In this document: one piece after another, positions 34,653 through 49,972 of the stretch | Layout: every line of letters starts with the position of its first letter | Numbering within the stretch: position 1 is the stretch's first letter | NCBI GenBank assembly: GCA_023389255.1 | Contig: JAEWER010000028.1 | Span: 20,282-84,281 of the forward strand | DNA length: 64,000 nt | Source of the DNA: Bacillota bacterium | GTDB taxonomy: Bacteria; Bacillota; Clostridia; Saccharofermentanales; DTU023 | Reading direction: 5' to 3' | Made by a program: the position numbers and the translations under genes | The notes under the pieces: model-generated | The model's database searches: none | What the model saw: the letters and a program-made list of their open reading frames with translations, nothing else | Told to the model about the DNA's origin: nothing

Positions 34653-34718
34653 AGCTTGGTTCTTGTGATTCTGCTTTGTAGCTACGGTGAAAACTGACTC
34701 AGAGAAAGCGGAACTCCC

Positions 34719-34732
34719 TGCAAGCGTTTGCA
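34719..34732. promoter_or_regulatory. LacI-family/cre-like operator TGCAAGCGTTTGCA
   Basis: Near-perfect 14-bp palindrome matching TGNAANCGNWNNCA, in the 380-nt non-coding leader of the inositol locus. Confidence 0.5.
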
Positions 34733-34896
34733 ACATATTTGCCTTTTTATCCTCTGAAAAGTATGTTCTTTTATTTCCTATAACTGGTATATTAGGAATG
34801 CTTATAGTGTCCTAGTAGCGGTAATTTATAAGTTTGACACACAATCCCTTGTGCAATTTACACAAAAATAGATGGGCTATTCTAGTCATATGTTCA

Positions 34897-34925
34897 TTGT
34901 TTGCTACACATTATCTATCTATAAT
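34897..34925 (+). promoter_or_regulatory. Putative sigma-A promoter of the inositol transporter/iolDG unit (TTGTTT-N17-TATAAT)
   Basis: Consensus -10 TATAAT at 34920-34925 and -35 TTGTTT at 34897-34902. Operator-like sites lie immediately downstream. Confidence 0.45.
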
Positions 34926-34963
34926 TGCAACAGGTTGCAAGCGTATTAGCTCATACAAGCAAT

Positions 34964-34977
34964 TGCAAACGCTTGAA
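34964..34977. promoter_or_regulatory. Second operator-like half-palindrome TGCAAACGCTTGAA
   Basis: Shares the TGCAAxCGxTTGxA pattern with 34719-34732 and 40520-40533. Located between the predicted -10 and the RBS of the ABC ATPase gene. Confidence 0.45.
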
Positions 34978-35033
34978 ACGCGTAGAGTAAAGACTGATTA
35001 TCCATTAAGGATATCGGGGAAGAGGAGTTAGCG

Positions 35034-36530
35034 ATGAGTGAATATGTTGTCGAATTGCGAAACATCACTAAGCGTTTCCCCGGTGTGTTAGCGCTCAAGG
35101 ATATGCACATTGCCATTAAGCCAGGTACTATACATGGTTTAATCGGTGAAAATGGTGCGGGTAAATCTACCTTGATTAAAACACTGACCGGCGTGCACAA
35201 GCCAGATACAGGCGAAATAATCGTCAATGGTGAAGTACACAAATTTAAGGACCCCAATGACTCAGCCAAAGCAGGTATTGCCTGTGTGTATCAGGAGCTG
35301 AACATTGAAAAACTACTCAGTATTACCGATAACATTTTTATTAACAAGTGGTTGCGAAAAGGTCCATTGCTTGATTACAAGACCATGCATGAAAAAGCAG
35401 CTGAGGTGATGAAAGATCTAGGTCAGACTGTTGATACGCATAAGGCTGCTGGTACTTTCGGCATGGGTGTCCAACAGATGATCGAAATTGCCAAGGCAAC
35501 CATGATCGATGCCAAGTTGATTATTATGGACGAGCCTACCTCATCTTTAGGAGAAAAAGAGGTAGAACAGTTGATGGCAACTTGTCGTTATCTCAAGAGT
35601 AAGGGTATTGCTATTCTCTTTGTTTCTCACAAACTGGAAGAGTTGTTTGAATTGTGCGATTTGGTCACAGTTATGCGTGATGGTGAACATATCATCACAG
35701 AAGACATCGAAAATATGGATCACGACAAGCTGATCACAGCCATGGTTGGTCGTTCTTTAGAAAATCAATTCCCTAAAGAGTTTGGCACCAGAGGCGAAGT
35801 TGCCTTAGAAGCCAAAGATTTAACTATTGGTGGTGTATTAGACAAGGTCAGCTTTAAAGCCTATAAGGGCGAAATCCTAGGTTTTGCTGGTTTGGTTGGC
35901 GCAGGTCGTACAGAAACGATGCGTGCTATCTTCGGTGCCGATCATCTAGATAGTGGTGAAGTTTATATTCACGGCGAAAAGGTTAGCATTAAAAACCCGG
36001 GTCATGCGGTCAAAAAAGGTATCGCTTTCTTAACGGAAGACCGCAAAGGACAGGGATTGGTTTTACAACAAAGTATTAGGACCAATCTGATCTTAGCTAA
36101 TCTCAAAGGTTTTTCTAACGGACCATTCTTAAACGAGAAGCGGATTGAACAATCTGGTGAGGATAATGTTGCCTCCCTACGTATTAAAACCCCATCGCTT
36201 GACGAGATTGTAGGACAACTTTCTGGTGGCAACCAACAAAAAGTTGTTATCGGTAAGTGGGTTAATACGGATGCACGTATCTTCATTTTTGATGAACCTA
36301 CACGTGGTATTGATGTAGGCGCCAAAATCGAAGTGTACAACGTTATGAACAGCCTGGTTAAAGCTGGACATTGCGTAATTATGATCTCCTCTGAGATGCC
36401 TGAAATCTTAGGTATGAGCGATCGTGTTGTGGTTATGCGTAAAGGTCGCGTCATGGCTACGATCAATCGTGGAGATAAAGAATTTAACCAAGAAGATATT
36501 ATGAGCGCTGCCTGGGGAGGTAAAAAATAA
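35034..36530 (+). CDS. Sugar/inositol ABC transporter ATP-binding protein (CUT2, duplicated ATPase)
   Basis: Two ABC cassettes: Walker A GENGAGKST, and LSGGNQQKV in the second half. RbsA/MglA-like, 498 aa. Confidence 0.9.
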   Translation: MSEYVVELRNITKRFPGVLALKDMHIAIKPGTIHGLIGENGAGKSTLIKTLTGVHKPDTGEIIVNGEVHKFKDPNDSAKAGIACVYQELNIEKLLSITDNIFINKWLRKGPLLDYKTMHEKAAEVMKDLGQTVDTHKAAGTFGMGVQQMIEIAKATMIDAKLIIMDEPTSSLGEKEVEQLMATCRYLKSKGIAILFVSHKLEELFELCDLVTVMRDGEHIITEDIENMDHDKLITAMVGRSLENQFPKEFGTRGEVALEAKDLTIGGVLDKVSFKAYKGEILGFAGLVGAGRTETMRAIFGADHLDSGEVYIHGEKVSIKNPGHAVKKGIAFLTEDRKGQGLVLQQSIRTNLILANLKGFSNGPFLNEKRIEQSGEDNVASLRIKTPSLDEIVGQLSGGNQQKVVIGKWVNTDARIFIFDEPTRGIDVGAKIEVYNVMNSLVKAGHCVIMISSEMPEILGMSDRVVVMRKGRVMATINRGDKEFNQEDIMSAAWGGKK

Positions 36531-37549
36531 TGTTAAAGCAAAATAAATTCTCCAAAATTTTATCGGAGTTGGGAACTCTGCTCGCCCTGATAATTCTCTG
36601 TGTGATTTTAACTATCGCTACTCCTAACTTTCTCAAAGTTGATAACTTGATGAACATCTTAAAGCAGACATCAGTTAATGCTTTGATTTCAGCTGGTATG
36701 TTAGTTTGCTTGATTACTGGTGGTATCGACTTATCAGTAGGTGCTAACGCCATTACTTGTACATGTTTAATGGGTTTGATGTTAACTAAAGGTATTGATA
36801 ATGCAGTAATCATGATTATCGCTGTTCTGGTTTTAGGTACTTTAATTGGTTTCATCAACGGTACCTTGTTAACTCGCTTACATTTACCCCACCCCTTCGT
36901 CTCGACACTGGGTATGAAAAATGTTCTCTCTGGTGTAGCTCTGTTACTGGTCAACTCTAAGATGGTATCAGGCTTCGGTAAAGATATTATGTGGTTGGGT
37001 TCACATTCAGCAGGTAGCTTCACCTATGGTGCTGGCAAACAATTCCCTGGTGTGCCTGTATCGTTCATCTTAGTAATCATTCTCTTCGCCATTATGGGTG
37101 TGTTCTTGAGCAAAACTGCTCTGGGTAGATCAATTTACTGTGTAGGTGGTAACGCTGAAGCAGCTAGACTTTCTGGTATTAATTCCGCTAACGTCTTAAC
37201 TTTCTGCTATGCCTTATCTGGTTTCTTCTGTGCTGTTGCTGGTATCGTTATCGTTGGTCGTACGGGTATCTGTAATGGTGCAAACGCAACTCAGCCCTAC
37301 GAAACTGATGCTATCGCAGCTTGTATCATCGGTGGTGCATCATTCCTAGGTGGTAAAGGAACTATGAGAGGTACCATGATTGGTGCTCTGATTATCTCCG
37401 TTATCAGAAATGGTTTGACCTTGCTTTCCGCCTCATCTGCCATTCAGTTTGTAGTTTTAGGTTTGGTTATCATCTTAGCGGTTCTAATCGATATTACACG
37501 TCAACAATTCGCTGTTAAAGCTCGTCGTCTAGCGATGGCTAGTAAGTAA
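36530..37549 (+). CDS. Sugar/inositol ABC transporter permease (RbsC/BPD_transp_2 family)
   Basis: 10-TM RbsC-like protein (..TGGIDLSVGA.., ..GGNAEAARLSGI..). ATGA-type overlap with the ATPase gene. Confidence 0.9.
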   Translation: MLKQNKFSKILSELGTLLALIILCVILTIATPNFLKVDNLMNILKQTSVNALISAGMLVCLITGGIDLSVGANAITCTCLMGLMLTKGIDNAVIMIIAVLVLGTLIGFINGTLLTRLHLPHPFVSTLGMKNVLSGVALLLVNSKMVSGFGKDIMWLGSHSAGSFTYGAGKQFPGVPVSFILVIILFAIMGVFLSKTALGRSIYCVGGNAEAARLSGINSANVLTFCYALSGFFCAVAGIVIVGRTGICNGANATQPYETDAIAACIIGGASFLGGKGTMRGTMIGALIISVIRNGLTLLSASSAIQFVVLGLVIILAVLIDITRQQFAVKARRLAMASK

Positions 37550-37576
37550 AACAGCTAGTAAGTAGAGGAAATAAAT

Positions 37577-39442
37577 ATGGATTTTCCGAGAATTCGTTTA
37601 ACAATGGCACAAGCCTTAGTCAAATTCATGGATAACCAATATGTTGAATTTGATGGCAAGGAACAAAAGTTTGTGCACGGTGTCTTCGGCATCTTTGGCC
37701 ATGGTTGCGTAACTGGTGTCGGCGAGGCGCTGGAATACATGGATCACGATCTGAAGTTTTATCAAGGTAAAAATGAGCAATCTATGGGTTTAGCTGCCAT
37801 GGCGTACGCTAAACAATTAGATCGTAGAGCCATCATTCCCTGCGTTTCTTCGATTGGTCCTGGTGCCACCAACATGGTAACTGCAGCGGCGTGTGCTACT
37901 GCTAATCGCATCCCGTTGTTGGTATTACCGGGAGACACCTTTGCAACACGTCAACCTGATCCAGTATTACAACAAGCTGAAATTTTCAGCAGTATCGGCA
38001 CCACAGTTAATGATTCATTTCGTGCAGTGTGTCGATATTTTGATCGCATCAATCGTCCTGAGCAATTGATGAGTGCACTGTTGCAAGCTTTCCGTGTATT
38101 GACCGATCCAGCGGAAACAGGAGCTGTCTGCATTGCGATGCCACAAGATGTTGAGGCAGAAGCTTATGATTATCCAGCTTATTTCTTTGAAAAGCGTGTT
38201 TGGCATATGGATCGTCGTCCTTTGGCGGTACCACAAGGTCAACGCTTAGAAGAGCTGATCAAGCAGAGCAAACGTCCACTGATGATTGTTGGTGGTGGTG
38301 TTCGCTACTCAGATGCTGGTGCAGAAGTTGTGAAACTAGCTGAACATTGCCAGATTCCTTTTGCCGAAACACAAGCTGGCAAAGGATTGATTCGTTGGGA
38401 TCATCCGCTAAATATGGGCGGTATCGGTGTAACTGGTACTGAATGCGCAAATTTAGTAGCCCAAAAAGCAGATTTGGTTATTGGCATTGGTACACGTTTC
38501 TCCGATTTCACAACTGCTTCAAAATGGTTATTTAAGAATCCAGAATGCAAATTCATTTCTATCAATGTATGTGGATTTGATTTAGTCAAACTAAATGCTC
38601 ATGGTATTCAAGCTGATGCCAAAGAAGCCTTGCAAGGAATGTATGAATTCTTAAATGACTATCAATCAGCTTATGAAGAAGATGAACTGAAGAACTTAAA
38701 AGAAAATTGGATCAAAGAAGCTAATCGTTTATTTGCTCAGCCTGGTCAAAAATTTAATCAGGTCGCAGCTGTGGGCATTATCAATCAGTTCATGGCAGAT
38801 GAAGATATCGTTTGCTGTGCAGCTGGTAGCTTGCCGGGTGATTTACAGCGTCTGTGGCGTCCAGGCAACAGTCATTCCTACCATGTTGAATATGGCTATT
38901 CCAACATGGGATATGATTTGAATGCTGGTCTGGGTATTAAGCTGGCAGCACCAAATTCTGAAGTGTTTACCATGGTGGGAGATGGTGGCTATTTAATGTT
39001 GAATGCAGAAGTCCATACCATGGTGCAGGAGCGAGCAAAGGTCAATATCATGTTGTTTGACAACATGGGGTGGGGCTGTATTGAAAGCCTGCAAAACAGT
39101 CATGGCGGTAATAGCTACGGTACTTGCTTCCAAGTTAGAAGAGAGGGAGAAGCAGTGCCTAAGGGAGATTTGATTCCTGTTGATTTCGCTATGAATGCTA
39201 GATCGTTAGGGTGTGCAGCCTATACCTGCCATAACGCTGAAGAACTCAAGCAAGCGTTGGTGGACAGCAAGAAAATAACAGATAAACCTGTGCTATTTGA
39301 TATTAAGGTTGACCATGCTTCTATGAGTAAAGGCTATGAATCATGGTGGCGTGTAGGTGTAGCAGAAGTTTCAGAGTCAGAAGAGGTGCGTAAGGCATAC
39401 GCTGACAATGTTGCTCATATTAAACAAACTCGGGATTATTAA
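37577..39442 (+). CDS. iolD: 3D-(3,5/4)-trihydroxycyclohexane-1,2-dione acylhydrolase (ThDP enzyme)
   Basis: IRLTMAQALVKFMDNQYVEFDGKE.KFV.GVFGIFGHG N-terminus and overall length are typical of IolD. GDGGYLM ThDP motif. Confidence 0.9.
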   Translation: MDFPRIRLTMAQALVKFMDNQYVEFDGKEQKFVHGVFGIFGHGCVTGVGEALEYMDHDLKFYQGKNEQSMGLAAMAYAKQLDRRAIIPCVSSIGPGATNMVTAAACATANRIPLLVLPGDTFATRQPDPVLQQAEIFSSIGTTVNDSFRAVCRYFDRINRPEQLMSALLQAFRVLTDPAETGAVCIAMPQDVEAEAYDYPAYFFEKRVWHMDRRPLAVPQGQRLEELIKQSKRPLMIVGGGVRYSDAGAEVVKLAEHCQIPFAETQAGKGLIRWDHPLNMGGIGVTGTECANLVAQKADLVIGIGTRFSDFTTASKWLFKNPECKFISINVCGFDLVKLNAHGIQADAKEALQGMYEFLNDYQSAYEEDELKNLKENWIKEANRLFAQPGQKFNQVAAVGIINQFMADEDIVCCAAGSLPGDLQRLWRPGNSHSYHVEYGYSNMGYDLNAGLGIKLAAPNSEVFTMVGDGGYLMLNAEVHTMVQERAKVNIMLFDNMGWGCIESLQNSHGGNSYGTCFQVRREGEAVPKGDLIPVDFAMNARSLGCAAYTCHNAEELKQALVDSKKITDKPVLFDIKVDHASMSKGYESWWRVGVAEVSESEEVRKAYADNVAHIKQTRDY

Positions 39443-39458
39443 TCCAAAGGAGGATAAA

Positions 39459-40466
39459 GTGATTAAATTAGGTGTTATCGGTACAGGCCGCATCGGTAAA
39501 TTACATGTTGAAAACATCAATAAATTTGTGCCGGATGCAAAGGTCATTGCTGTAGCTGATGTGATGATCGATTACAGCCGTGAATGGGCAAAAGAGCAAG
39601 GCATTGAACATGTCTACCAGGATTACAATGAACTCTTGCAAAATCCTGAAGTAGACGCCGTGGTCGTAGCTACATCCACAGATACCCATGCAACTGTGGC
39701 TATTGCTGCCTGCAAAGCTGGTAAAGACATTTTCTGTGAGAAACCAGTTGATACTTCAGTAGCTAAAATTAAAGAGGTTTTGGCTGCAGTTAAAGAAGCT
39801 GGTGTCAAATTCCAAGTTGGCTTTAACCGTAGATTTGACCACAATTTCCGTCGAGTACGTGAATTTGTAGAAAATGGCACAGTGGGTGAACCGCATCTAT
39901 TGCGTGTTACCAGTCGTGATCCAGCCCCCCCTTCAGTTGAATATATCGCTTCTTCAGGTGGTTTATTCCTAGATATGATGATTCACGACTTTGATATGGT
40001 GCGTTATCTGAGTGGAAGTGAAGTCAAAAAAGTTACTGCGTTTGGTGCAAATCTGATTGATCCAGCAATTGGCAAAGCAGGCGATATCGATACAGCTACT
40101 GTGACTTTGGAACTAGAAAATGGTGCACTAGCTGTTATTGATAACAGTCGTCAAGCGGTTTATGGCTATGACCAAAGAGTGGAAGTATTTGGCTCCAAAG
40201 GTGTAGCGCAAGCGTTTAATGACAAGCCTTCTAATGTGGAGGTTTCAACGGCTGATGCAGTAACCACCGATAAAATCCGCTATTTCTTCTTAGATCGCTA
40301 TACGGGTGCCTTTGTTGATCAATTTGTCAGCTTTATCAAGGCGCTGAAAGGCGAAGCTGAAGTTCCGGTTGATGCTCTAGATGGTTTGCGTGCAGTAGAG
40401 GTTGCTTTAGCAGCAACTGAGTCACTGCGTTCAGGTAAAACCATCACCATGGAATACGATCAATAA
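39459..40466 (+). CDS. iolG: myo-Inositol 2-dehydrogenase (Gfo/Idh/MocA)
   Basis: IKLGVIGTGRIGKLH Rossmann fold, EKP motif (FCEKPV) and GFNRRFD. GTG start at 39459 with AAAGGAGG RBS; the track ORF start overlaps the end of iolD. Confidence 0.85.
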   Translation: MIKLGVIGTGRIGKLHVENINKFVPDAKVIAVADVMIDYSREWAKEQGIEHVYQDYNELLQNPEVDAVVVATSTDTHATVAIAACKAGKDIFCEKPVDTSVAKIKEVLAAVKEAGVKFQVGFNRRFDHNFRRVREFVENGTVGEPHLLRVTSRDPAPPSVEYIASSGGLFLDMMIHDFDMVRYLSGSEVKKVTAFGANLIDPAIGKAGDIDTATVTLELENGALAVIDNSRQAVYGYDQRVEVFGSKGVAQAFNDKPSNVEVSTADAVTTDKIRYFFLDRYTGAFVDQFVSFIKALKGEAEVPVDALDGLRAVEVALAATESLRSGKTITMEYDQ

Positions 40467-40471
40467 AAATA

Positions 40472-40507
40472 AGCGAATTGTAACAGTTATAGCTGTTGCA
40501 ATTCGCT
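40472..40507 (+). terminator. 15-bp stem-loop after iolG (terminator-like or RNA-stability hairpin, no 3' U-tract)
   Basis: AGCGAATTGTAACAG-ttatag-CTGTTGCAATTCGCT with a single G-U wobble. Followed by AAAATAATC rather than a T-run. Confidence 0.6.
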
Positions 40508-40519
40508 AAAATAATCTAT

Positions 40520-40533
40520 AGCAAACGTTTGAA
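40520..40533. promoter_or_regulatory. Operator-like palindrome AGCAAACGTTTGAA upstream of iolE
   Basis: Contains the perfect 10-bp palindrome CAAACGTTTG. Same motif family as the two sites in the locus leader. Lies 19 nt upstream of the iolE ATG. Confidence 0.5.
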
Positions 40534-40551
40534 ACGTTAAGTGAGGTAGCT

Positions 40552-41448
40552 ATGTTAGCAAAAGACAAAGTACATTTAGGAATTGCTCCGATCGGTTGGA
40601 CAAATGATGATATGCCCGATCTCGGCAAAGAAAACACATTTGAACAATGTGTAAGTGAAATGGCGTTGGCAGGATTTACAGGTTCAGAGGTTGGCAATAA
40701 ATATCCCAAAGATCCAGCTGTCTTAAAGCCTATGCTTGATATTCGTGGTATGAGAATAGCCAACCAATGGTTTTCATCGTTGCTGACATCAGAGCCTTAT
40801 GAAGTGACTATTGAGAACTTCAAAAAACAACTTGAATTTCTTAAAGCTATGGGCGCTAAGGTAATCGGTGCTTCAGAGCAAGGAAATTCTATTCAAGGTA
40901 AACAAATTCCTATTTTAGGTGAGCAAAAACCTGTCTTTACTGATGAGCAATGGCAACTCATTGCTAAAGGTATGAACGAAATGGGCAAAATTGCTCGTGA
41001 TATGGGCATGACTCTAACGTACCATCACCATATGGGCACAGGCATTCAAACCATGGCAGAGGTAGACAAATTTTTGGAGCTGACTGATCCGGAATTAGTT
41101 TTCCTGCTGTATGATACAGGGCATTTTGCTTTCTCAGGTGAAGATCATGTGGTTGCCGTTGAACGCTACATGCCGCGAATTAAGCACGTGCACTTGAAAG
41201 ACATTCGTAGTTCAGTCATCGAGCAAGTGAGAAAAGAAAATAAGAGCTTCTTAGAGGCTGTGCGTATGGGTGCATTTACAGTACCTGGTGATGGCGATTT
41301 GGACTTCAAGCCTGTGTTTGAGGTGCTAGAAAAGAATAATTACAGTGGTTGGATGATTGTAGAAGCAGAGCAAGATCCAGCCAAAGCGAATCCTTTTGAA
41401 TACGCAGTAAAAGCGCGCAAGTTCATCCGCGAAAATACTGGTTTATAA
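40552..41448 (+). CDS. iolE: Inosose (2-keto-myo-inositol) dehydratase
   Basis: LGIAPIGWTNDDMPDLG...YHHHMGTGIQT...FTVPGDGDLDFKPVF...VEAEQDPAKANP is nearly collinear with Bacillus IolE. Confidence 0.9.
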   Translation: MLAKDKVHLGIAPIGWTNDDMPDLGKENTFEQCVSEMALAGFTGSEVGNKYPKDPAVLKPMLDIRGMRIANQWFSSLLTSEPYEVTIENFKKQLEFLKAMGAKVIGASEQGNSIQGKQIPILGEQKPVFTDEQWQLIAKGMNEMGKIARDMGMTLTYHHHMGTGIQTMAEVDKFLELTDPELVFLLYDTGHFAFSGEDHVVAVERYMPRIKHVHLKDIRSSVIEQVRKENKSFLEAVRMGAFTVPGDGDLDFKPVFEVLEKNNYSGWMIVEAEQDPAKANPFEYAVKARKFIRENTGL

Positions 41449-41459
41449 CACAGGTCATT

Positions 41460-42527
41460 ATGGTCACGATTAAAGACATTGCCGAAAAAGCTGGTGTTTC
41501 TTACTCAACAGTTTCTCGTTCGTTGAACGATTATGCAGGAACTAATGATGAAACTAAGAAACGCATTAAAGAGTTAGCTAAGCAAATGGGCTACGAGCCT
41601 AACGATATCGCACGTTCTTTGGTGACCAGAAGATCAAATACTGTTGGTTTTGTTTTACCCGATATTGCGAATCCTTTCTTTGCTGATATTTTGTCTGCCA
41701 TCAATGAGATAGCAGAAATGCATGGATTTAACACTCTGGTTTGTAGTACGGGATGGAATGCTGATAAAGAATTACAAGCCCTAAAAATGCTCTCGTCTAA
41801 GCGGGTGGATGGCATAGTTTTATACCCCGCCCGCTTGATCGAGGACGATCGCTTAGAAGTGATCAAACCTCCGGTCATAGTGATGGGCAGACCGTATGAT
41901 CCAGAAAAGAATAGGATCAAATGTGTGGAAGTAGATAATGATAAAGGCGCACGTTTAGCTATAGATCATTTGGTGGCCAGTGGCTACAGCAGAATAGCTT
42001 ATTTAGGTGGACCGAATCATTCTCTTTCCAACATTATTCGCAAACAAGCTTTTGCAGATGAGCTAATCAAAAAGCAGTTCGCTTGTAACGAAGAGTGGAT
42101 TAGCGACGGAGAATACACCATTGATAGTGGTTGTGAGCGTGCTAGAACGTTGCTTAAGCAGACTTCTAAAAACGCAAAACAACTACCAGATGCGCTACTC
42201 TGTGCCAACGATATGATCGCTTTGGGAGCGATGCAAGCAGTTGAAGAACTAGGGTTTAAGTTAGGCAAAGATATCGCAGTGATGGGTTTTGATGATGTTC
42301 AATATGCTTCTTTACCTCAGATACAGCTCTCTACTATCAGCATCCCACGTTTTGAATTAGGACGTATCTCTATGCAGATGCTGATAGAGGCGATAGAACA
42401 GCAACCAATAGATAAAGCAGGACGTACCAACAATTCTAAGTACAATCTTGCGTTACAACAGGAAGTCAAAGGTTATAGAGTTTTGCTCTATCCAGAATTA
42501 ATCGTACGTAAAACAACAGTAAAGTAG
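41460..42527 (+). CDS. LacI-family transcriptional regulator
   Basis: N-terminal HTH (VTIKDIAEKAGVSYSTVSRSLN) and a periplasmic-binding-protein-like sugar-binding core. Confidence 0.9.
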   Translation: MVTIKDIAEKAGVSYSTVSRSLNDYAGTNDETKKRIKELAKQMGYEPNDIARSLVTRRSNTVGFVLPDIANPFFADILSAINEIAEMHGFNTLVCSTGWNADKELQALKMLSSKRVDGIVLYPARLIEDDRLEVIKPPVIVMGRPYDPEKNRIKCVEVDNDKGARLAIDHLVASGYSRIAYLGGPNHSLSNIIRKQAFADELIKKQFACNEEWISDGEYTIDSGCERARTLLKQTSKNAKQLPDALLCANDMIALGAMQAVEELGFKLGKDIAVMGFDDVQYASLPQIQLSTISIPRFELGRISMQMLIEAIEQQPIDKAGRTNNSKYNLALQQEVKGYRVLLYPELIVRKTTVK

Positions 42528-42536
42528 GTATTTAGA

Positions 42537-43799
42537 GTGCAATACACAGTAGCCATAGGAGAAAGAAAGCAGTCTGTCGAAATTCCTGAAGAATTAGTTT
42601 TGGCAGTTCTGGAGCAAAATGAGGTTCAGGTTGAACTCACTGGAGCTGATGCTGTAAGCCAAGCTATCAACAACCCTATAGGTAGTCCTAAACTGGAAGA
42701 AATCATCAAACCGGGTGAGAAGATTGCCATCATTACTTCAGATTTGACTAGACCGATACCTTCATACATCGTGTTGCCACCATTACTTGAGCGATTACGC
42801 AAAATTGGTTGTGCTAATGAAGACATAGTTATTGTGTTTGCTTTAGGATCACACCGTAAGCAGACTGAAGCAGAGATGCGTAAATTGGTAGGGGACCAAG
42901 TTTACGATAATTATCGCTGTGAGGATGGAGATATCGATGATGTGGTGCACATGGGCACTACAAGTAGTGGCACACCAGTTGATGTTTGTCGCACGGTTGC
43001 CGAAGCTGATCGCAGAATTTGTTTGGGCAATATTGAATACCACTACTTTGCTGGTTACAGTGGAGGTGCAAAGGCGATTATGCCTGGTGTTTCCACCAGA
43101 GCTGCGATTCAAGCTAATCACAGCATGATGGTTAGAGATACTGCAACTACTGGTAATGTTGATCACAACCCTGTACGTGATGATTTAGAAGAAGCGATCA
43201 ACTATTGTCCTATAGATTTTATTGTCAATGTGGTTCTCGATGAACACAAAAAAATTATTCATGCCGTGGCTGGTCACTTTATCACTGCTCATCGTAGCGG
43301 TTGTAAGTTCCTGGATAGCCTTTATCTCAAACCTATTGCTAAACGTGCAGATATTGTTATCTGTTCACAAGGTGGCAAACCGAAAGATTTGAATTTGTAT
43401 CAAACACAAAAGGCACTGGACAATGCTAAAAATGCGGTGCGTGACGGAGGCATCATAATTTTGGTGGGTTCTTGTCAGGAAGGATTAGGCGAAGGAGTTT
43501 TTGAACGTTGGATGTTGGAACATGATGAATCGTCCAGCATGATCAGTGATATTCAAAAACACTTTGAGCTAGGAGGGCATAAAGCCGCCGCGATTGCGAT
43601 GGTATTACAACGTGCTCGTATTTTCTTAGTTTCAGATATGGAGCATGAATTTGTCAGACGAATTTTTATGACTCCGTTCAACACAGTCCAAGAAGCCTAT
43701 GATCAGGCGAAAAAAGAGCTAGGAGAGCAAAGTGAAGTCATTATCATGCCGTATGGAGGTTCGACATTACCGCGCTGCCTAGCTGACAAAGATAAATAA
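42537..43799 (+). CDS. LarA-family nickel-pincer-nucleotide-dependent 2-hydroxyacid racemase/epimerase homolog
   Basis: DUF2088/LarA fold, 420 aa. Retains ALGSHR (His108-equivalent), EYHYFAGYSGGAK (His174 and cofactor-tethering Lys184 equivalents) and QANH (His200-equivalent). Confidence 0.85.
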   Translation: MQYTVAIGERKQSVEIPEELVLAVLEQNEVQVELTGADAVSQAINNPIGSPKLEEIIKPGEKIAIITSDLTRPIPSYIVLPPLLERLRKIGCANEDIVIVFALGSHRKQTEAEMRKLVGDQVYDNYRCEDGDIDDVVHMGTTSSGTPVDVCRTVAEADRRICLGNIEYHYFAGYSGGAKAIMPGVSTRAAIQANHSMMVRDTATTGNVDHNPVRDDLEEAINYCPIDFIVNVVLDEHKKIIHAVAGHFITAHRSGCKFLDSLYLKPIAKRADIVICSQGGKPKDLNLYQTQKALDNAKNAVRDGGIIILVGSCQEGLGEGVFERWMLEHDESSSMISDIQKHFELGGHKAAAIAMVLQRARIFLVSDMEHEFVRRIFMTPFNTVQEAYDQAKKELGEQSEVIIMPYGGSTLPRCLADKDK

Positions 43800-43833
43800 T
43801 GAGCTCAGCTCAAGTGATATGTAGGAGGTTCAC

Positions 43834-44868
43834 ATGTCAAAGGTAAAAGTAGGTGTAGCAGGTTATGGTGTCATTGGCCAAAGATTGGCTGATGGCGTTG
43901 CTCGTCAACAAGATATGGAATTAGTTGGTATTGCAGATATTGCTCCCACTTTATCCATTCGCGCTTTACATGAAAAAGGCATGCCTTATGATCTATATTT
44001 GGTCGATGGCGCTAAAAAAGAGGATTTTGAGAAATACGGCATCCCCACTAAAGGAAGTTTCGAAGATTTGGTCAACCAAGTTGATATCATGCTAGATTCT
44101 TCACCTGGTGGTGTTGGTATCAAAAATAAAGAGTTGTATGAACGCCTAGGCAAGAAAGCCATCTTCCAAGGTGGCGAATGCAATGAGGTAGCAGATGTCT
44201 TCTTCCACGGCTATGCTAACTTTGAGAAAGGTTTAGATCAAAAATATCTGAAGCTGACTTCTTGTAATACCACTGGTCTGATTCGTTCAGTGGATTGCTT
44301 AGATCGTGCTTATGGTATTAGCAATGTAGCTATCACCATTGTTCGACGTGTAGCCGATCCTGGCGATTACCACCGTGGATTAACCAATGCTTTGCGCATT
44401 GACAAGGCTCCCAGCCATCAAGCAGTAGACTTGATGACTATCATGCCTCATGTAGAAGCAACAGGTATCTTAATCCATACACCTGTCACCCATGGTCATA
44501 TCATTACAGTCGTAGCTAAAGGTAAAGAAAAAATTACCAAAGAGATGGCTTTAGAGGCTTTTGCTAAACACGATCGTATTCGTTTGGTTTCAATCGATGA
44601 AGGCTTCTTAGGTAACGCATCTCTATTCCGCTATGCTCGTGATTTAGGTAATCCTCGTGGCGATATGTATGAAATCGCTATCTGGAAAGATTCAATTGTT
44701 GAAACAGGCGATGGTATCATGTACGCCATCAATATTCCTCAAGAAGCAGTTACTATTCCTGAAACTATGGACGCAATTCGCGCAGCCACTGGTATGCAAA
44801 ATTCCCGTGAAGAAGGAACTGCTAAAACCAATGAATATTTAGGTTTAGGAAAATGGAAAAACAAATAA
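43834..44868 (+). CDS. Type II (archaeal-type) glyceraldehyde-3-phosphate dehydrogenase family protein
   Basis: Collinear with archaeal GAPDH: VGVAGYGVIGQRLAD, active-site SCNTTGL, IVRRVADP. 344 aa. Strong AGGAGG RBS. Confidence 0.85.
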   Translation: MSKVKVGVAGYGVIGQRLADGVARQQDMELVGIADIAPTLSIRALHEKGMPYDLYLVDGAKKEDFEKYGIPTKGSFEDLVNQVDIMLDSSPGGVGIKNKELYERLGKKAIFQGGECNEVADVFFHGYANFEKGLDQKYLKLTSCNTTGLIRSVDCLDRAYGISNVAITIVRRVADPGDYHRGLTNALRIDKAPSHQAVDLMTIMPHVEATGILIHTPVTHGHIITVVAKGKEKITKEMALEAFAKHDRIRLVSIDEGFLGNASLFRYARDLGNPRGDMYEIAIWKDSIVETGDGIMYAINIPQEAVTIPETMDAIRAATGMQNSREEGTAKTNEYLGLGKWKNK

Positions 44869-46088
44869 AGTCTTATAAAGAATTTTCTTATGCTGGGCGC
44901 AGAGTTCTTCTGCGTCTAGATATTAATTCTCCTTTAGATCCTAAGACCAAGCAAATTACCGATACTACTCGTATCGATAAAAGTTTGTCCACAGTTAATT
45001 ACCTGCTGGAACAAGGAGCTAAAGTAGCTATCATTGCGCACCAAGGCGATACTTTGGACTATCAGAATTTATATCCATTAGCCGAGCACGCCAAGATTCT
45101 AAGCGAAAAGACTGGTCGCAAAGTAGACTATATCGATGATGTATGTGGACCAGCTGCCATTGCTAAGATCAAGGAACTCTCAGATGGTGAGGCGATTATT
45201 TTAGGCAATTTGCGCTACTTAGCCGAAGAAATTTCTACTTTTGAAACAGTGGTTAAGTTGACTCCGCAAGAGATGACTAAAACTTGGCTAATTCGTAGCT
45301 TAAGCGAGCACTTTGATTACTATGTCAATGATGCCTTTTCCGCTGCGCATCGTGCTTGTCCCTCGATGGTTGCTTTCCAAGAAGTGTTACCATCGGCTGC
45401 TGGTGAATTATTCTTTGCTGAATATTCAGCGCTCAACAACGTGCTCAAACAGCCACAACATCCATCGGTATTTGTGCTCGGGGGCGCCAAAATTTCTGAT
45501 GCCTTTGGCATGATGGAACAGGTTCTAGTTAACGGTACTGCCGATAAAATTTTAACAACTGGCGTTACTGGCGTAGTGTTTCTGTTAGCTCAAGGTAAGA
45601 GCATTGGTAGTAAGTATGAGCAGTGGTTGCGAGATCGTAAGTTGTTGGACTTTGTTGAACCGGCAAAACGTTATTTGGAAGAATATGCCGGTAAAATCGA
45701 GGCTCCAGTCGACTTAGCGTACGCACAAAATGATGAAAGAAAAGAGTTAGATATTGCCCAACTACCCATGGACGATGCAATGTTCCTGGATATAGGCAGT
45801 GCTACAATAGAAAAGTATCAAGAGATTATTCAATCGGCGGCAACATTGTTTGTCAATGGCCCTGCTGGTGTCTACGAAGATCCGTTATTTGTTAAAGGTA
45901 CAGAAGCTCTCTGGCAAGCTATCGCAAAAGCGCCAGGACACTCTGTTATCGGTGGCGGAGATACCGTACAAGCTGCAGGCAAGTTTATTGATCTGACTGA
46001 CATAGGTTATGTCTGTACAGCGGGCGGTGCCATGGTCAGATTTATGACAGGCAAAAAACTTCCTCTGATTGAAGCGATGGAGAAATAA
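44853..46088 (+). CDS. Archaeal-type phosphoglycerate kinase family protein with an altered substrate motif
   Basis: RLDINSPLDPKTKQITDTTRI...GAKVAIIAHQGD...GNLRY..EE and the C-terminal GGGDT pattern. 411 aa. Overlaps the GAPDH-like gene by 16 nt. Confidence 0.8.
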   Translation: MEKQIKSYKEFSYAGRRVLLRLDINSPLDPKTKQITDTTRIDKSLSTVNYLLEQGAKVAIIAHQGDTLDYQNLYPLAEHAKILSEKTGRKVDYIDDVCGPAAIAKIKELSDGEAIILGNLRYLAEEISTFETVVKLTPQEMTKTWLIRSLSEHFDYYVNDAFSAAHRACPSMVAFQEVLPSAAGELFFAEYSALNNVLKQPQHPSVFVLGGAKISDAFGMMEQVLVNGTADKILTTGVTGVVFLLAQGKSIGSKYEQWLRDRKLLDFVEPAKRYLEEYAGKIEAPVDLAYAQNDERKELDIAQLPMDDAMFLDIGSATIEKYQEIIQSAATLFVNGPAGVYEDPLFVKGTEALWQAIAKAPGHSVIGGGDTVQAAGKFIDLTDIGYVCTAGGAMVRFMTGKKLPLIEAMEK

Positions 46089-46939
46089 TGATGGATAAAT
46101 CACAGAAATTTTCATTAGAAAAATTTGCTGCTGAGATTCGTCTGCACACCACTAAAGAAGTTGTAAAACGTGGCTTTGGCCACTTAGGCGGATCTCTTTC
46201 AGTAGTTGATGCTTTGGCTGTTTTATACGGCAAGCAACTAAAATGCGATCCCAAGAATCCTAAAGATCCTGATCGTGATTATTTAGTGATGAGCAAAGGT
46301 CATGCGGGTCCCGCAGTTTATGCAACACTGGCTCTCAAAGGCTTTTTCCCCATTGAAGAGCTGGAAACTTTGAACCAACCAGGCACAAATTTGCCCAGCC
46401 ATTGTGACCGCAATAAGACAATCGGTGTAGATGCTACCACTGGTTCCTTAGGACAAGGTTCATCTCAAGCCTGTGGTATCGCTTTAGGCAACAAATTAGC
46501 TGGCAGACAAAATTATACCTATCTGTTCACCGGTGATGGTGAGAGTAACGAAGGACAAATTTGGGAAGCCGCCTTGTTTGCCAGTCAACAAAAACTGGAT
46601 CATCTGATTTGGTTTGTTGATTACAACCGTAAGCAACTTGATGGTGCTACCGATGAAGTCATGAGTATGGGTTCCATTGTTGATAAGTTTAAAGCTTTTG
46701 GATTTCATGCTGTGGAAGTAGATGGACACGATGTTTGCGCAATTGATGATGCCATCGAGCAAGCTAAACAAGTTAAGGATCAACCTTCTTGCATCGTCTT
46801 GAACACCATTAAGGGTAAGGGTTTAGACGAACTAGAGAAGATGGCATTGAATCACCATATCGCCATCGATGAAGCTTTCGGCAAATCATCAGTGGCATTC
46901 TTTGAGGAAGCTTTAGCCACAATGAAGGAGGAAGCCTAA
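46088..46939 (+). CDS. Transketolase, N-terminal (PP-domain) subunit
   Basis: SKGHAGPAVYA and ThDP motif GDGESNEGQIWEA...DYNRKQLDG. 283 aa, split-type. Confidence 0.9.
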   Translation: MMDKSQKFSLEKFAAEIRLHTTKEVVKRGFGHLGGSLSVVDALAVLYGKQLKCDPKNPKDPDRDYLVMSKGHAGPAVYATLALKGFFPIEELETLNQPGTNLPSHCDRNKTIGVDATTGSLGQGSSQACGIALGNKLAGRQNYTYLFTGDGESNEGQIWEAALFASQQKLDHLIWFVDYNRKQLDGATDEVMSMGSIVDKFKAFGFHAVEVDGHDVCAIDDAIEQAKQVKDQPSCIVLNTIKGKGLDELEKMALNHHIAIDEAFGKSSVAFFEEALATMKEEA

Positions 46940-47913
46940 TGTTTAAAGTTATCTACGATGGTACTGCCGAGCAGAAGGCACACAAGAATGTATACGCTGA
47001 TACAATTGAGCAATTAGCCAGTGAAGATAAAGATGTAATTTATCTGGATGCTGATTTGATGAATTCAGCTGGTACTTATAAATTCTGGAAAGAGCATCCC
47101 GACCAAGCCATTAACTGTGGTATTGCGGAAGCAAATATGATGGGCGTAGCTGCTGGCTTATCTTTAGTTGGCAGAAAACCATATGTACATACTTTTGGAC
47201 CTTTTGCGTCACGCAGATGTTATGATCAAACTTTTTTAAGTGTTGGTTATTCCAAAAACAGTGTGCGTATTTTTGGTTCTGATCCTGGTGTGGCTGCAGC
47301 TTTCAATGGTGGTACGCATATGCCTTTTGAAGATATGGCGCTGATGCGTGCAATTCCAGAGTCACATGTTTTTGATTTGGCAGATGGCGTGCAATTTGCT
47401 TGGACTTTACGTGCAGTCAAAGACTTATCTGGCGTAGTCTACATGCGTAGTACCCGCAAGAATTACAAAAAGATCTATGCAGAGGATTCAACTTTCGAGA
47501 TTGGTAAAGGCAATGTCCTCCGTGAAGGTACCGATTTAACAATCATTGCTTGTGGCTTGATGGTTGGTGAAGCGATGGAAGCAGCTGAGATGCTAGAAAA
47601 GGAAGGTATTTCAGCACGTGTTGTTGATATGTTTACAGTAAAACCCTTAGATGCAGAATTAGTTTGCGAATCTGCCAAGAAAACGGGTTGTATTGTTACA
47701 GCTGAAAATCACAATATTATCGGCGGTCTAGGCGAAGCTGTTGCTTCTGCTTTGGCTGGTGGTTGCAAAGCATGTCGTGGTGTAGCCTTTAAGAAGCATG
47801 GTGTTACCGATCGTTTTGGTGAAGTTGGACCTGTTGACTACCTGCAAGAAGTTTATGGCTTAACGGCAAAAGCGTTAGTAGAAACATGTAAACAAGCATT
47901 AGCTGAAAAGTAG
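46939..47913 (+). CDS. Transketolase, C-terminal (Pyr + C-terminal domain) subunit
   Basis: DADLMNS...GIAEANMMGVAAGL...GGTHMPFEDMALMRAIP. 324 aa. ATG overlaps the upstream stop (TAATG). Confidence 0.9.
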   Translation: MFKVIYDGTAEQKAHKNVYADTIEQLASEDKDVIYLDADLMNSAGTYKFWKEHPDQAINCGIAEANMMGVAAGLSLVGRKPYVHTFGPFASRRCYDQTFLSVGYSKNSVRIFGSDPGVAAAFNGGTHMPFEDMALMRAIPESHVFDLADGVQFAWTLRAVKDLSGVVYMRSTRKNYKKIYAEDSTFEIGKGNVLREGTDLTIIACGLMVGEAMEAAEMLEKEGISARVVDMFTVKPLDAELVCESAKKTGCIVTAENHNIIGGLGEAVASALAGGCKACRGVAFKKHGVTDRFGEVGPVDYLQEVYGLTAKALVETCKQALAEK

Positions 47914-47914
47914 T

Positions 47915-47943
47915 GCCGAGCGAGCTTCGCTCGGCTTTTTTTG
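47915..47943 (+). terminator. Strong rho-independent terminator after the transketolase genes
   Basis: GCCGAGCG-agctt-CGCTCGGC followed by T8. Confidence 0.85.
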
Positions 47944-47951
47944 AGGGAATT

Positions 47952-48752
47952 ATGTATATCGAAAAAGAGCTACATCCTGGCTATAACGAATATTTAAGTT
48001 TGGATGTTGAAAACGGATATGGTAGCTGGATGGATGTCGGTTTGCTCATCTTGCAAGCTGGTGACAGCTACACTTTTGCTGAAACAGAAAAAGAAGTTTC
48101 TTGGATTTTAATGCAAGGCAAGGCTGTTGCTGAATTCGATGGACAAAATGTAGAGATGGATCGTCCCAATCCCTTTGCATACAATCCATGGTGTTTATTG
48201 ATGTCTAAGAATCATAGCTGCACTGTAACTGCAATATCAGACTGTGAATTCTACGTACAAAAATCCTATAACGACAAGGAATATGCAACGCATCTTTATA
48301 CTGATCAGGAAACTGATACTTGGCATCGTGGAGATAAAGGTGAATTAGGAGACTGCATTCGTCGTGATGTCAGAACTTGTTATGACTATGAGACTAGACC
48401 CGACTCCAACATGGTCTTGGGTGAAGTGGTAAATTTACCAGGCAAATGGTCAAGTTATCCGCCCCACAATCATCCACAACCAGAAGTATATTTCTATTTC
48501 TTTGAAAAGGAGCAAGGTTTTGGTGCAGGGTGGGCAGATAATCGTCCATATGAATTGCATCATCATGGGTGTTTAGTGATTACTGATGAAGTTACACACT
48601 CACAAGTTATGGCGCCAGGTTATGCTTGTTGTTATACCTGGGGTATTCGTCATCTACCAGGTAATCCTTGGGAAAAAACAAGAATAGATGATCCTAAACA
48701 CGAATGGCTTTTAGCAGAAAATCCTCAATACTGGGATCAACCTAAACAATAG
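47952..48752 (+). CDS. iolB: 5-Deoxy-glucuronate isomerase
   Basis: Cupin with the GKWSSYPPHNH signature and a ..DDPKHEWLL C-terminus, as in Bacillus IolB. I moved the start to the ATG at 47952 (GAGGGA RBS) because the track ORF start lies inside the terminator. Confidence 0.85.
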   Translation: MYIEKELHPGYNEYLSLDVENGYGSWMDVGLLILQAGDSYTFAETEKEVSWILMQGKAVAEFDGQNVEMDRPNPFAYNPWCLLMSKNHSCTVTAISDCEFYVQKSYNDKEYATHLYTDQETDTWHRGDKGELGDCIRRDVRTCYDYETRPDSNMVLGEVVNLPGKWSSYPPHNHPQPEVYFYFFEKEQGFGAGWADNRPYELHHHGCLVITDEVTHSQVMAPGYACCYTWGIRHLPGNPWEKTRIDDPKHEWLLAENPQYWDQPKQ

Positions 48753-48784
48753 AATCATGTGCAATTGCACTGAAAGGTAAATTT

Positions 48785-49972
48785 ATGGCAGAAAAAATAA
48801 ATTACGCTGAGATGTCATTAGCAAAACATCAAGAGTGGAAGGGAAAGATTGAAGTTATCGCTACTTGTCCTGTTTCCAGCAAACACGAATTAGCTTTAGC
48901 ATACACGCCAGGCGTTGCTGAACCTTGTTTGCAGATTCAGAAGGATGTTGATAAATCCTACGAGTTAACACGCAGACACAACTTAGCCTTGGTAGTTACA
49001 GATGGTAGTGCTGTTTTAGGTCTTGGAGATATTGGGCCTGAGGCAGGCATGCCTGTTATGGAAGGTAAATGTGCTCTGTTTAAAGCATTTGGTGATGTAG
49101 ATGCTTTCCCCTTATGCGTTAAATCACAAGACGTAGATACAATAGTAGAAACCATCTATCAAATTTCGGGCAGTTTTGCTGGCGTGAATTTAGAAGATAT
49201 TGCAGCTCCGCGTTGTTTTGAAATTGAAGAGCGCCTAAAAGCTAAATGCGATATCCCCATTTTCCACGATGATCAACATGGTACGGCTGTTGTAACTTTG
49301 GCTGGCTTAATCAATGCCTTGAAGATCGTAGGCAAAAAGATGGATGAGATCAAAGTCGTTATGAATGGCGCAGGTGCAGCTTCGATTGCTATTAGCAAAT
49401 TGTTGTTATCAGCCGGTGTAAAAGATCTTATTTTGTGCGATCGCAAAGGGGTAATTTATAAAGGTCGTACCGAGGGCATGAATAAGTATAAAGAGCAGAT
49501 GGCAGAGATTAGTAATCCACGTCAAATCAAAGGCTCTTTAGCTGATGCTCTAGTGGGTGCTGATGTGTTTGTTGGCGTATCAGCTGCTGGCGCAGTTTCT
49601 CAAGATATGGTTCGTTCAATGAATAAAGATGCTATCGTTTTCGCTTGTGCCAACCCCATTCCAGAAATCTATCCAGACGAAGCTAAAGAAGCTGGTGCCG
49701 CTGTTACAGCAACAGGCAGATCAGACTTCGCTAACCAAATCAATAATGTTTTAGCATTCCCAGGTATTTTCCGCGGAGCATTTGATGTGCGTGCTAAGGA
49801 CATTAACCAAGAAATGAATGTGGCAGCAGCTCATGCTATCGCCTCACTAGTTGGGGATGATGAATTAAATCCTGAGCACATCATGCCAGATGCTTTTGAT
49901 CCAAGAGTTAAAGAAGTAGTGGCTAAAGCGGTAGCAGAGGCAGCTATTAAGACAGGCGTGAATCGTATCTAA
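48785..49972 (+). CDS. NAD(P)-dependent malic enzyme (short type)
   Basis: LAYTPGVAEPC, VVTDGSAVLGLGDIG, FAGVNLEDI..P.CF, FHDDQHGTA and GAGAA dinucleotide motifs. Confidence 0.9.
   Translation: MAEKINYAEMSLAKHQEWKGKIEVIATCPVSSKHELALAYTPGVAEPCLQIQKDVDKSYELTRRHNLALVVTDGSAVLGLGDIGPEAGMPVMEGKCALFKAFGDVDAFPLCVKSQDVDTIVETIYQISGSFAGVNLEDIAAPRCFEIEERLKAKCDIPIFHDDQHGTAVVTLAGLINALKIVGKKMDEIKVVMNGAGAASIAISKLLLSAGVKDLILCDRKGVIYKGRTEGMNKYKEQMAEISNPRQIKGSLADALVGADVFVGVSAAGAVSQDMVRSMNKDAIVFACANPIPEIYPDEAKEAGAAVTATGRSDFANQINNVLAFPGIFRGAFDVRAKDINQEMNVAAAHAIASLVGDDELNPEHIMPDAFDPRVKEVVAKAVAEAAIKTGVNRI

Follow-up and report, generated by a model that had tools for sequence, protein, structure and literature searches.

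In the canonical Bacillus pathway of myo-inositol catabolism, ATP is spent at IolC and the product is then cleaved by IolJ. Transketolase (TK) requires a ketose donor of the form CH2OH-CO-CHOH-CHOH-R with the 3S,4R (D-threo) configuration. Here we describe a gene cluster at positions 35034-49972 of a 64 kb window (the whole stretch of DNA that was analysed) from a Bacillota bacterium (contig JAEWER010000028.1), in which genes for the early steps of inositol catabolism are interspersed with those for a LarA homolog, a type II (archaeal-type) glyceraldehyde-3-phosphate dehydrogenase (GAPDH) paralog designated GAPII, an archaeal-type phosphoglycerate kinase (PGK) paralog, a split TK and a malic enzyme. 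It is proposed that the cluster encodes a variant myo-inositol fermentation pathway that is TK-based and ATP-yielding, and we give the full mechanism a somewhat better than even chance.

Several described systems come close to parts of this proposal. SqwGH, a two-subunit, thiamine diphosphate (ThDP)-dependent TK, cleaves an anionic ketose that carries no phosphate and transfers the ketol unit to glyceraldehyde 3-phosphate (G3P), yielding xylulose 5-phosphate (PMC9594981). The conversion of malic semialdehyde to D-malate and on to pyruvate has been proven in the carnitine catabolism of Acinetobacter (PMC11353897), and an engineered malyl-phosphate pathway to 2,4-dihydroxybutyrate employs malyl phosphate and malate semialdehyde (PMC12104201). 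Mar2 from Thermoanaerobacterium thermosaccharolyticum racemises malate with a KM of 0.38 mM for L-malate, six other assayed activities having been undetected; what malate racemases do physiologically was left open by its authors, whose genomic context table gives malic enzyme as a neighbour of LarAH group 6 (15%) and PGK as one of group 4 (17%) but relates neither to a pathway (PMC7583248). Neither the 2020 nor the 2024 LarA paper settles what malate racemase does in vivo, and both name PGK and malic enzyme as neighbours, uninterpreted.

Gene content and the proposed pathway

The co-oriented genes listed in a preliminary description of this sequence (importer genes, IolD, IolG, IolE, a LacI regulator, LarA, GAPII, PGK, both halves of a split TK, an IolB-like protein and malic enzyme) are all present, and the thirteen of them are intact and lie on the + strand in one cluster, flanked by trkAH on one side and rplU-prp-rpmA-obg on the other. 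Families were called with Pfam and NCBIfam profiles. The gene order is identical in two independent metagenome assemblies, so the cluster is not a chimera. Its lack of IolC, IolJ and IolA, as first described, extends to the whole window: domain scans of the 64 kb found neither a PfkB kinase nor a class II aldolase of the FBA type nor an aldehyde dehydrogenase (ALDH), and there is no second gap, pgk or tkt gene in it.

The upper half of the pathway is assigned to an importer and four enzymes. The ABC transporter ATPase (35034-36530, +; Pfam ABC_tran, 165 bits in two stretches, corresponding to two ABC domains) and the sugar-type ABC permease (36530-37549, +; BPD_transp_2) are probable components of an inositol importer. 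IolG, an inositol 2-dehydrogenase (39459-40466, +; TIGR04380, 458 bits against a cutoff of 355; 335 aa from the start of the public gene call), IolE, an inosose dehydratase (40552-41448, +; TIGR04379, 421 bits against 290), and IolD, the ring-opening hydrolase leading to 5-deoxy-D-glucuronate (37577-39442, +; TIGR04377, 884 bits against 715), each exceed their own NCBIfam equivalog cutoff. The fourth enzyme is a divergent KduI/IolB-family isomerase (47952-48752, +; Pfam KduI, 143 bits) with no matching PDB sequence. Its gene begins at the ATG at 47952 behind a GAGGG ribosome-binding site, rather than at 47913 as originally described, and the resulting 266-aa product is identical to the public gene call. 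Judged by homology, the ABC system would import inositol, and IolG, IolE, IolD and the IolB-like isomerase would convert it to 5-dehydro-2-deoxy-D-gluconate (DKG), the isomerase acting on 5-deoxy-D-glucuronate.

DKG (HOCH2-CO-CHOH-CHOH-CH2-COO-, D-threo) can be regarded as the carboxylate analogue of D-xylulose 5-phosphate. Because it retains C3 and C4 of D-gluconate, it is D-threo when read from the ketol end and thus a formally valid TK donor; the earlier stereochemical argument, according to which cleavage leads to D-malate, is sound as chemical inference. We propose that the split TK passes the C2 ketol unit from DKG to an aldose phosphate of the pentose-phosphate pool and releases D-malate semialdehyde ((R)-3-hydroxy-4-oxobutanoate), the carboxylate analogue of D-G3P. 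GAPII would then use NAD+ and Pi to convert D-malate semialdehyde to D-malyl phosphate, the analogue of 1,3-bisphosphoglycerate (1,3-BPG), from which the PGK paralog would transfer the phosphate to ADP, giving ATP and D-malate, the analogue of 3-phosphoglycerate (3-PG). The nickel-pincer racemase would convert D-malate to L-malate, and malic enzyme would convert L-malate to pyruvate and CO2; since an L-specific malic enzyme cannot use D-malate, the racemase would be required. The C2 unit would join the pentose-phosphate pool as it does from xylulose 5-phosphate. Compared with the canonical route, the ATP spent at IolC would be spared and one ATP gained, a substrate-level phosphorylation taking the place of IolC and of the branch through IolJ and IolA.

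These intermediates mirror the glycolytic ones, which offers a natural reason for the recruitment of GAPDH and PGK and for a partial loss of their phosphate sites. The iol intermediates down to DKG include no 2-hydroxy acid, so the racemase points to a product formed after cleavage. The interpretation as a whole is supported by synteny, the family of the racemase, the loss of phosphate contacts in PGK and TK, the invariant changes in GAPII, signals of co-regulation and the lack of alternative enzymes.

The remainder of the window consists of housekeeping genes. An aldolase encoded at 6331-7044 on the - strand was considered as IolJ and ruled out, as it is a member of PF00596 (fuculose-phosphate aldolase/ribulose-5-phosphate epimerase family) lying 28 kb away; it stands alone among housekeeping genes and is probably unrelated to the inositol cluster. 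Downstream of the cluster, the ORF for ribosomal protein L21 (50036-50449) starts with GTG and encodes 137 aa, compared with 103 aa in the public gene call; the true start is probably further downstream, which would lengthen the intergenic region after the malic enzyme gene.

Active sites of the lower-half enzymes

The LarA homolog (42537-43799, +) had been described as a candidate malate racemase, and this assignment is backed by its score of 577 bits against the equivalog model NF052593, "nickel-dependent malate racemase, LarAH6 family" (cutoff 500), and by its similarity to the characterised Mar2, its closest solved structure (PDB 6D6Z, 386 bits, E 1.6e-114). In the alignment with Mar2 it keeps the D/R motif SDxTRP, both catalytic His residues, the Lys and the residues that bind the nickel-pincer nucleotide (NPN). 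We describe it as a putative LarAH6/Mar2-type NPN malate racemase. Four residues, Y172, K173, Q293 and K351, have been listed for the specificity of Mar2 (PMC7583248). Three of these proposed malate-specificity residues (Y172, Q293 and K351) are kept in the window protein, and Mar2 K173 is replaced by Phe.

The enzyme proposed to follow it is a short-form malic enzyme (48785-49972, +) that matches Pfam malic plus Malic_M and, in its N-terminal region, NF009501 (369 bits). In the second metagenome assembly of the same organism (L082, 7190-8377) the malic enzyme is called as two ORFs of 95 and 262 aa, which reflects a frameshift variant or else a fault of the assembly.

The TK is split into an N-terminal, ThDP-binding subunit (46088-46939, +; Pfam Transketolase_N, 171 bits) and a C-terminal subunit with the Pyr and C domains (46939-47913, +), the latter identified by its Pfam domains and by alignment to human TK and to the functional Carboxydothermus split TK (6YAJ). 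The N-terminal subunit scores 219 bits to the split TK 6YAK and has a canonical appearance, keeping the conserved His residues and the GDG motif. Across the two subunits the GDG, GH(L)GG and SKGHA motifs and the Glu of AE(A)N are present, and Pfam recognises the ThDP, Pyr and C domains. The C-terminal subunit departs from the canonical pattern in the stretch GSDPGVAAAFNGGTHMPF, where human R318 corresponds to Lys, H416 to Asp, E423 to Phe and D424 to Asn. Among 27 linked TKs (an alignment that leaves out the unrelated paralog of L059), the R318 position is Lys (Arg in two), H416 is Asp, E423 is Phe (Tyr or Leu in a few) and D424 is Asn; the resulting signature, G(S/T)D(P/A)G...(F/Y)NGGTHMPF, is essentially invariant, with Leu for Phe/Tyr in one. 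Ser345 and Arg474 (human numbering) are kept, and the functional enzyme 6YAJ has the canonical residues at all of the altered positions. Human R318 and H416, which correspond to yeast Arg359 and His469, are contacts of the substrate phosphate, and human Asp424 (yeast Asp477) reads the D-threo hydroxyl, with Glu423 directly before it. On these grounds the split TK is proposed to be a DKG-cleaving transketolase with an altered substrate channel.

GAPII (43834-44868, +) scores 401 bits against NF003251 (cutoff 185) and 293 bits against TIGR01546 (cutoff 233), and is 35-40% identical to archaeal GAPDHs of known structure. The hallmarks of a phosphorylating type II GAPDH are present, namely the profile match, the Cys motif, the Arg-Arg pair and the catalytic His; in the window protein the Cys motif reads SCNTT and the His motif THGH (His220/His222). 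In a comparison of 120 bacterial family members with 120 archaeal GAPDHs (Thermococcales, Sulfolobales and Methanobacteriales), Ser143 of the Cys motif, Arg171 and Arg172 are invariant on both sides (120/120 each). Six changes are essentially fixed between the groups: H196Q (in the "SHH" motif), S123F, P183L, H302P, T261N and K35D, with the bacterial residue in 119-120 of the 120 family members and the archaeal one in 120 of 120. Two further substitutions, N276G and K16Q, also separate the groups. The K16 and K35 columns correspond to the lysines that reportedly bind the 2'-phosphate of NADP in mutagenesis work on the Methanothermus enzyme; because K16Q and K35D replace them, GAPII is predicted to be catabolic and is probably NAD-dependent. 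For the other substitutions, a role is suggested by their invariance. We propose that GAPII acts as a phosphorylating D-malate-semialdehyde dehydrogenase.

The PGK paralog (44853-46088, +) matches Pfam PGK with 359 bits over residues 9-401 and has the Pyrococcus PGK 2CUN as its top PDB match; it passes no NCBIfam model, the lone match scoring 278 against a cutoff of 883. Most of the contacts to 3-PG are kept (Asp/Asn, Arg38, His62, Arg122 and Arg170). The column of human Arg65, which belongs to the basic patch contacting the phosphate of 3-PG in PGK-3PG structures, is occupied by Asp in the window protein (HQGDT), and by Asp or Ser in 74/74 linked PGKs, leaving the 3-phosphate patch (human R65, R122, R170 and H62) incomplete in all of these by the replacement of R65. 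Searching 1.8 billion proteins yielded 128 full-length PGK representatives, of which 111 have Arg or Lys in this column, and the Asp and Ser forms are concentrated among the closest relatives of the query. By alignment, PGK and TK are both altered at canonical substrate-phosphate contacts, and the PGK paralog is proposed to be an ATP-forming D-malyl-phosphate:ADP phosphotransferase. The GAPII-linked PGKs, all covered by the count of 74, fall into two types, one 57-68% identical to the window PGK (HQGDT) and the other 41-45% identical (HQGSD), which points to two recruitments or to an early divergence inside the module.

Recurrence, regulation and alternative explanations

When one genome per species was scanned, 361 loci proved to encode a GAPII relative. 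Of these, 80 were fetched with up to 10 kb of flank on each side; they come from Clostridia, from Treponema and other Spirochaetes, and from Pelolinea (Chloroflexi, Anaerolineae). PGK is adjacent to GAPII in 75 of the 80 loci, and the other partners are LarA (39 loci), malic enzyme (31), both TK halves (30-31), IolD/IolE (28-29) and IolB homologs (22). Forty-eight loci are well flanked (6 kb or more on each side). The full set is found in 11 of them and all but malic enzyme in 6, and 34 carry at least one of the Iol, TK, LarA and malic enzyme genes. The TK-GAPII-PGK-LarA-malic enzyme set occurs without iol genes in 4 loci, the lower half thus behaving like a portable unit, and since the gene order varies between lineages, selection for co-location is indicated rather than a single inherited arrangement. 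None of the 2665 ORFs of the 80 loci has a motif of ALDH or of an FBA-type aldolase, leaving GAPII as the sole candidate for an aldehyde-oxidising enzyme of the module; PfkB is represented by one full-length kinase (L067, Pelolinea), 9 kb from GAPII, and by a second match that is a 123-aa ORF. Two predictions made from the window sequence, the recurrence of the GAPII/PGK/split-TK/LarA/malic enzyme set with iolBDEG and its anticorrelation with iolCJA, are borne out, the former in many genomes of three phyla and the latter at the level of the locus, no iolC/J/A-type gene having been found among the linked loci. That such a "carboxylate-analogue lower glycolysis" runs in anaerobes from three or more phyla (Clostridia of gut and rumen, Treponema of termites and elsewhere, and Anaerolineae), with a portable module that may serve other substrates as well, is a generalisation on which our judgement is evenly balanced.

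The related loci also differ in detail. A Peripla_BP_4 gene adjoins the ABC genes in some of them (e.g. L003, 17131-17985). The spirochaete loci L058, L062-L065, L070 and L074-L080 have the order PGK-GAPII and a malic enzyme that is about 40% identical. Three of the carriers are cultured, Pelolinea submarina MO-CFX1 (L067), Treponema sp. TIM-1 (L080) and Eubacteriaceae bacterium ES2 (L059), and in each the set is incomplete over the 10 kb of flank: iolD/E/B and a TK of the module type are missing there from L067 and L059, and a TK from L080. In three Christensenellaceae loci (L042, 16105-17232; L045, 16043-17173; L047, 16069-17181) the TK genes are followed by an OAD_beta gene (Pfam, 513 bits), encoding the beta subunit of a Na+-translocating oxaloacetate decarboxylase, with no malic enzyme nearby; an H+-pyrophosphatase gene follows OAD_beta in L047 and, by ORF clustering, in L042. 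A full oxaloacetate decarboxylase operon was rejected for these three loci, there being no adjacent alpha subunit. OAD_beta may be a weak hint of C4-dicarboxylate metabolism with an ion-pumping alternative exit.

Signals of co-regulation are found in the window. TTGCAAACGCTTGCAA is a palindrome of the LacI-operator type with three copies upstream of the ABC gene (34718-34733, 34925-34940 and 34963-34978), ahead of ABC/iolD/iolG, and one upstream of iolE (40519-40534). The copy at 34963-34978 abuts a promoter-like site (34973-35001), and the fourth overlaps another (40529-40556). Allowing at most 3 mismatches, 9 strand-matches were counted in place of the 1.35 expected, a number reached by none of 100 shuffles, and 8 of the 9 lie within the two upstream regions of the cluster; the remaining weak match is at 17080. 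The regulator encoded within the cluster (41460-42527, +; Pfam LacI plus Peripla_BP_1/3) is the probable repressor binding these palindromes and probably governs two promoters, one for abc-iolD-iolG and one for iolE-lacI-larA-gapII-pgk-tkAB. The start and stop codons of gapII, pgk, tkN and tkC overlap, and iolE, lacI and larA are spaced by 9-34 bases. Judging from this spacing and the positions of the motif, larA-gapII-pgk-tkAB most likely belongs to the iolE-led operon and shares its regulator with the abc-iolD-iolG operon. Between the tkC stop codon and the iolB start, inside the apparent single cluster, lies a terminator-like hairpin (47915-47935, +; GCCGAGCGAGCTTCGCTCGGC) with a 9 bp stem of 7 GC pairs followed by T7, which may act as a partial terminator or as an attenuator, or may stabilise the RNA. 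Ahead of iolB and the malic enzyme gene there is no operator-like motif.

Several observations weigh against the proposed pathway. In the upper half, the IolB-like protein falls short of its equivalog model (TIGR04378, 85 bits against a cutoff of 205), so that of the iolB first described the family assignment stands and the equivalog assignment does not; likewise, of the described ABC importer (34652-37549) the ATPase and permease genes stand, and no binding-protein gene was found in the window by tblastn with the binding protein of a relative. In the lower half, domain scans of the 64 kb found none of the LarA cofactor genes larB, larC and larE. The change of His416 to Asp in the TK brings an extra negative charge that is not obviously suited to the binding of a carboxylate. 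Yeast PGK mutants in Arg65 reportedly retain activity, which makes the change in this column of PGK suggestive rather than decisive. The hairpin described above splits iolB and the malic enzyme gene from the rest of the cluster. Several spirochaete loci have the order iolGBDE-PGK-GAPII-malic enzyme with no TK within 10 kb, and the LarA-like gene of the spirochaetes is merely 30-34% identical; these organisms may use other partners or keep TK elsewhere. Two further points of this kind, the cross-phylum identity of GAPII and the GAPII-PGK pairs that stand alone, form part of the case for the best-placed alternative.

According to this alternative, which we regard as unlikely, GAPII and PGK are ordinary enzymes of G3P and 1,3-BPG that came from archaea by horizontal transfer and boost the lower glycolysis of TK-derived phosphates, and an unlinked dehydrogenase oxidises any malate semialdehyde. 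GAPII passes NF003251 and TIGR01546 and keeps Ser143, the Arg-Arg pair and His220/His222, and PGK matches its Pfam family over the full length and keeps most of its 3-PG contacts. Between Clostridia, Treponema and other Spirochaetes, and Anaerolineae, GAPII sequences share about 80% identity, a level more typical of a central-metabolism enzyme, and in 13 of the 48 well-flanked loci GAPII-PGK occurs without other module genes in housekeeping-like surroundings. The standalone copies, however, belong mostly to one clade, Stercoripulliclostridium and relatives, and share their active-site substitutions with the iol-linked copies; in or near this clade, LarA, or malic enzyme plus LarA, is directly adjacent in L027, L043, L054 and L066. 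With shared substitutions and some members next to LarA or malic enzyme, the clade is no proof of an ordinary GAPDH/PGK pair. The GAPII-PGK-only loci were also considered as a gap-pgk-tpi-gpm-eno operon, which was rejected, the neighbours being an ABC exporter, a metallophosphoesterase, FAD proteins, an ECF S-component and glutamine synthetase III. Moreover, the pair is accompanied by the malate racemase in 39 and by malic enzyme in 31 of the 80 loci, iol-free loci included, and glycolysis needs neither enzyme; none of the 80 loci offers an alternative ALDH. The loss of the Arg65 equivalent of PGK is concentrated in the linked subfamily, and GAPII is changed at residues that are invariant in 120 archaeal GAPDHs, both of which count against this alternative.

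That the TK-based pathway is real yet already published outside the open-access literature is distinctly unlikely. Our literature search was confined to open-access PMC and bioRxiv, and the chemical logic is simple and within reach of the cluster-mining groups behind the sulfo-TK and apiose TK pathways. However, no description of the proposed route was found in the full texts searched, none of which joins inositol or DKG with transketolase, D-malate, malate racemase or malyl phosphate, and malyl phosphate appears in them in engineered pathways only. As noted, the LarA papers of 2020 and 2024 leave the role of malate racemase open, and NCBIfam release 20 (June 2026), in which LarA subfamily models exist, holds no subfamily model for GAPII, PGK or TK. 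A "novel inositol pathway" published in 2026 for Dysosmobacter (Oscillospiraceae) was considered as the same route and rejected, being one in which a non-IolJ aldolase cleaves DKG 6-phosphate (PMC13311982).

It is very unlikely that two unrelated modules are neighbours here, namely a canonical inositol route with iolC/J/A elsewhere and a TK/GAPII/PGK/LarA/malic enzyme set for a keto-deoxy sugar acid, D-malate or tartrate, for although the lower module is free of iol genes in L017, L056, L071 and L073, where it has AraC- or DeoR-type regulators and other transporters, and although the hairpin divides the cluster of the window, larA-gapII-pgk-tkAB lies between iolE and iolB as a tight or overlapping string behind an operator-bearing promoter, and iol and module genes are interleaved in varied orders in at least 20 loci of three phyla, none of them with an iolC/J/A-type gene.

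If the TK-based pathway is correct, it would revise the fermentation of a common sugar alcohol of plants and diet in the anaerobes of gut, rumen and termite, which would gain ATP from it without investment. Three new specificities would be hidden under the annotations "transketolase", "type II GAPDH" and "phosphoglycerate kinase", nickel-pincer malate racemases would have a physiological role, and natural malyl phosphate would be a new acyl phosphate for substrate-level phosphorylation. Metabolic reconstruction that scores iolC/J/A would miss these organisms and miscount their GAPDH and PGK copies as glycolytic.

Comparison with described systems

The canonical Bacillus Iol pathway has its first four enzymes and the intermediate DKG in common with the pathway proposed here, although the IolB of the window is divergent. 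The two would part at DKG: IolC, IolJ and IolA are absent from the window, and in the 80 related loci a single full-length PfkB was found and neither an ALDH nor an FBA-II motif. In place of a C3+C3 aldolase reaction on DKG 6-phosphate, a C2+C4 cleavage of the unphosphorylated acid by TK is proposed. In this respect a parallel of mechanism is the sulfo-TK SqwGH, likewise a two-subunit TK encoded in a catabolic cluster of an anaerobe. Here the substrate would carry a carboxylate rather than a sulfonate and undergo one cleavage rather than two, and the aldehyde released would be oxidised to an acyl phosphate instead of being reduced to isethionate.

The steps that are proposed to follow use the same two families as archaeal lower glycolysis, with the same chemistry from aldehyde to acyl phosphate to acid plus ATP. 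The proposed substrates differ in having CH2-COO- for CH2-OPO3, the PGK lacks the equivalent of Arg65, GAPII has H196Q and Asp for an NADP-binding Lys, and the genes lie within a sugar-acid cluster together with a malate racemase. The C4 intermediates proposed here are those of carnitine catabolism in Acinetobacter, and both systems must route the unusual D-malate to pyruvate. Acinetobacter does so with a non-phosphorylating malic semialdehyde dehydrogenase of the ALDH superfamily, which yields no ATP, and a D-malate-specific decarboxylating dehydrogenase, whereas in the window GAPII and PGK would provide a gain of ATP, followed by the nickel-pincer racemase and an L-malic enzyme. The synthetic malyl-phosphate pathway is engineered and runs in the reductive direction, and by our chemical reading it involves the other regioisomer (4-phospho-L-malate and 2-hydroxy-4-oxobutanoate).

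Finally, the LarA homolog belongs to the same subfamily as Mar2 (LarAH6), as judged by its profile match and its top PDB match, and the two have their catalytic and NPN-binding residues in common. They differ at Lys173 of Mar2, which is Phe in the window protein. The present cluster offers a candidate physiological role for this group of racemases, the conversion of D-malate to L-malate in an ATP-yielding fermentation of myo-inositol.

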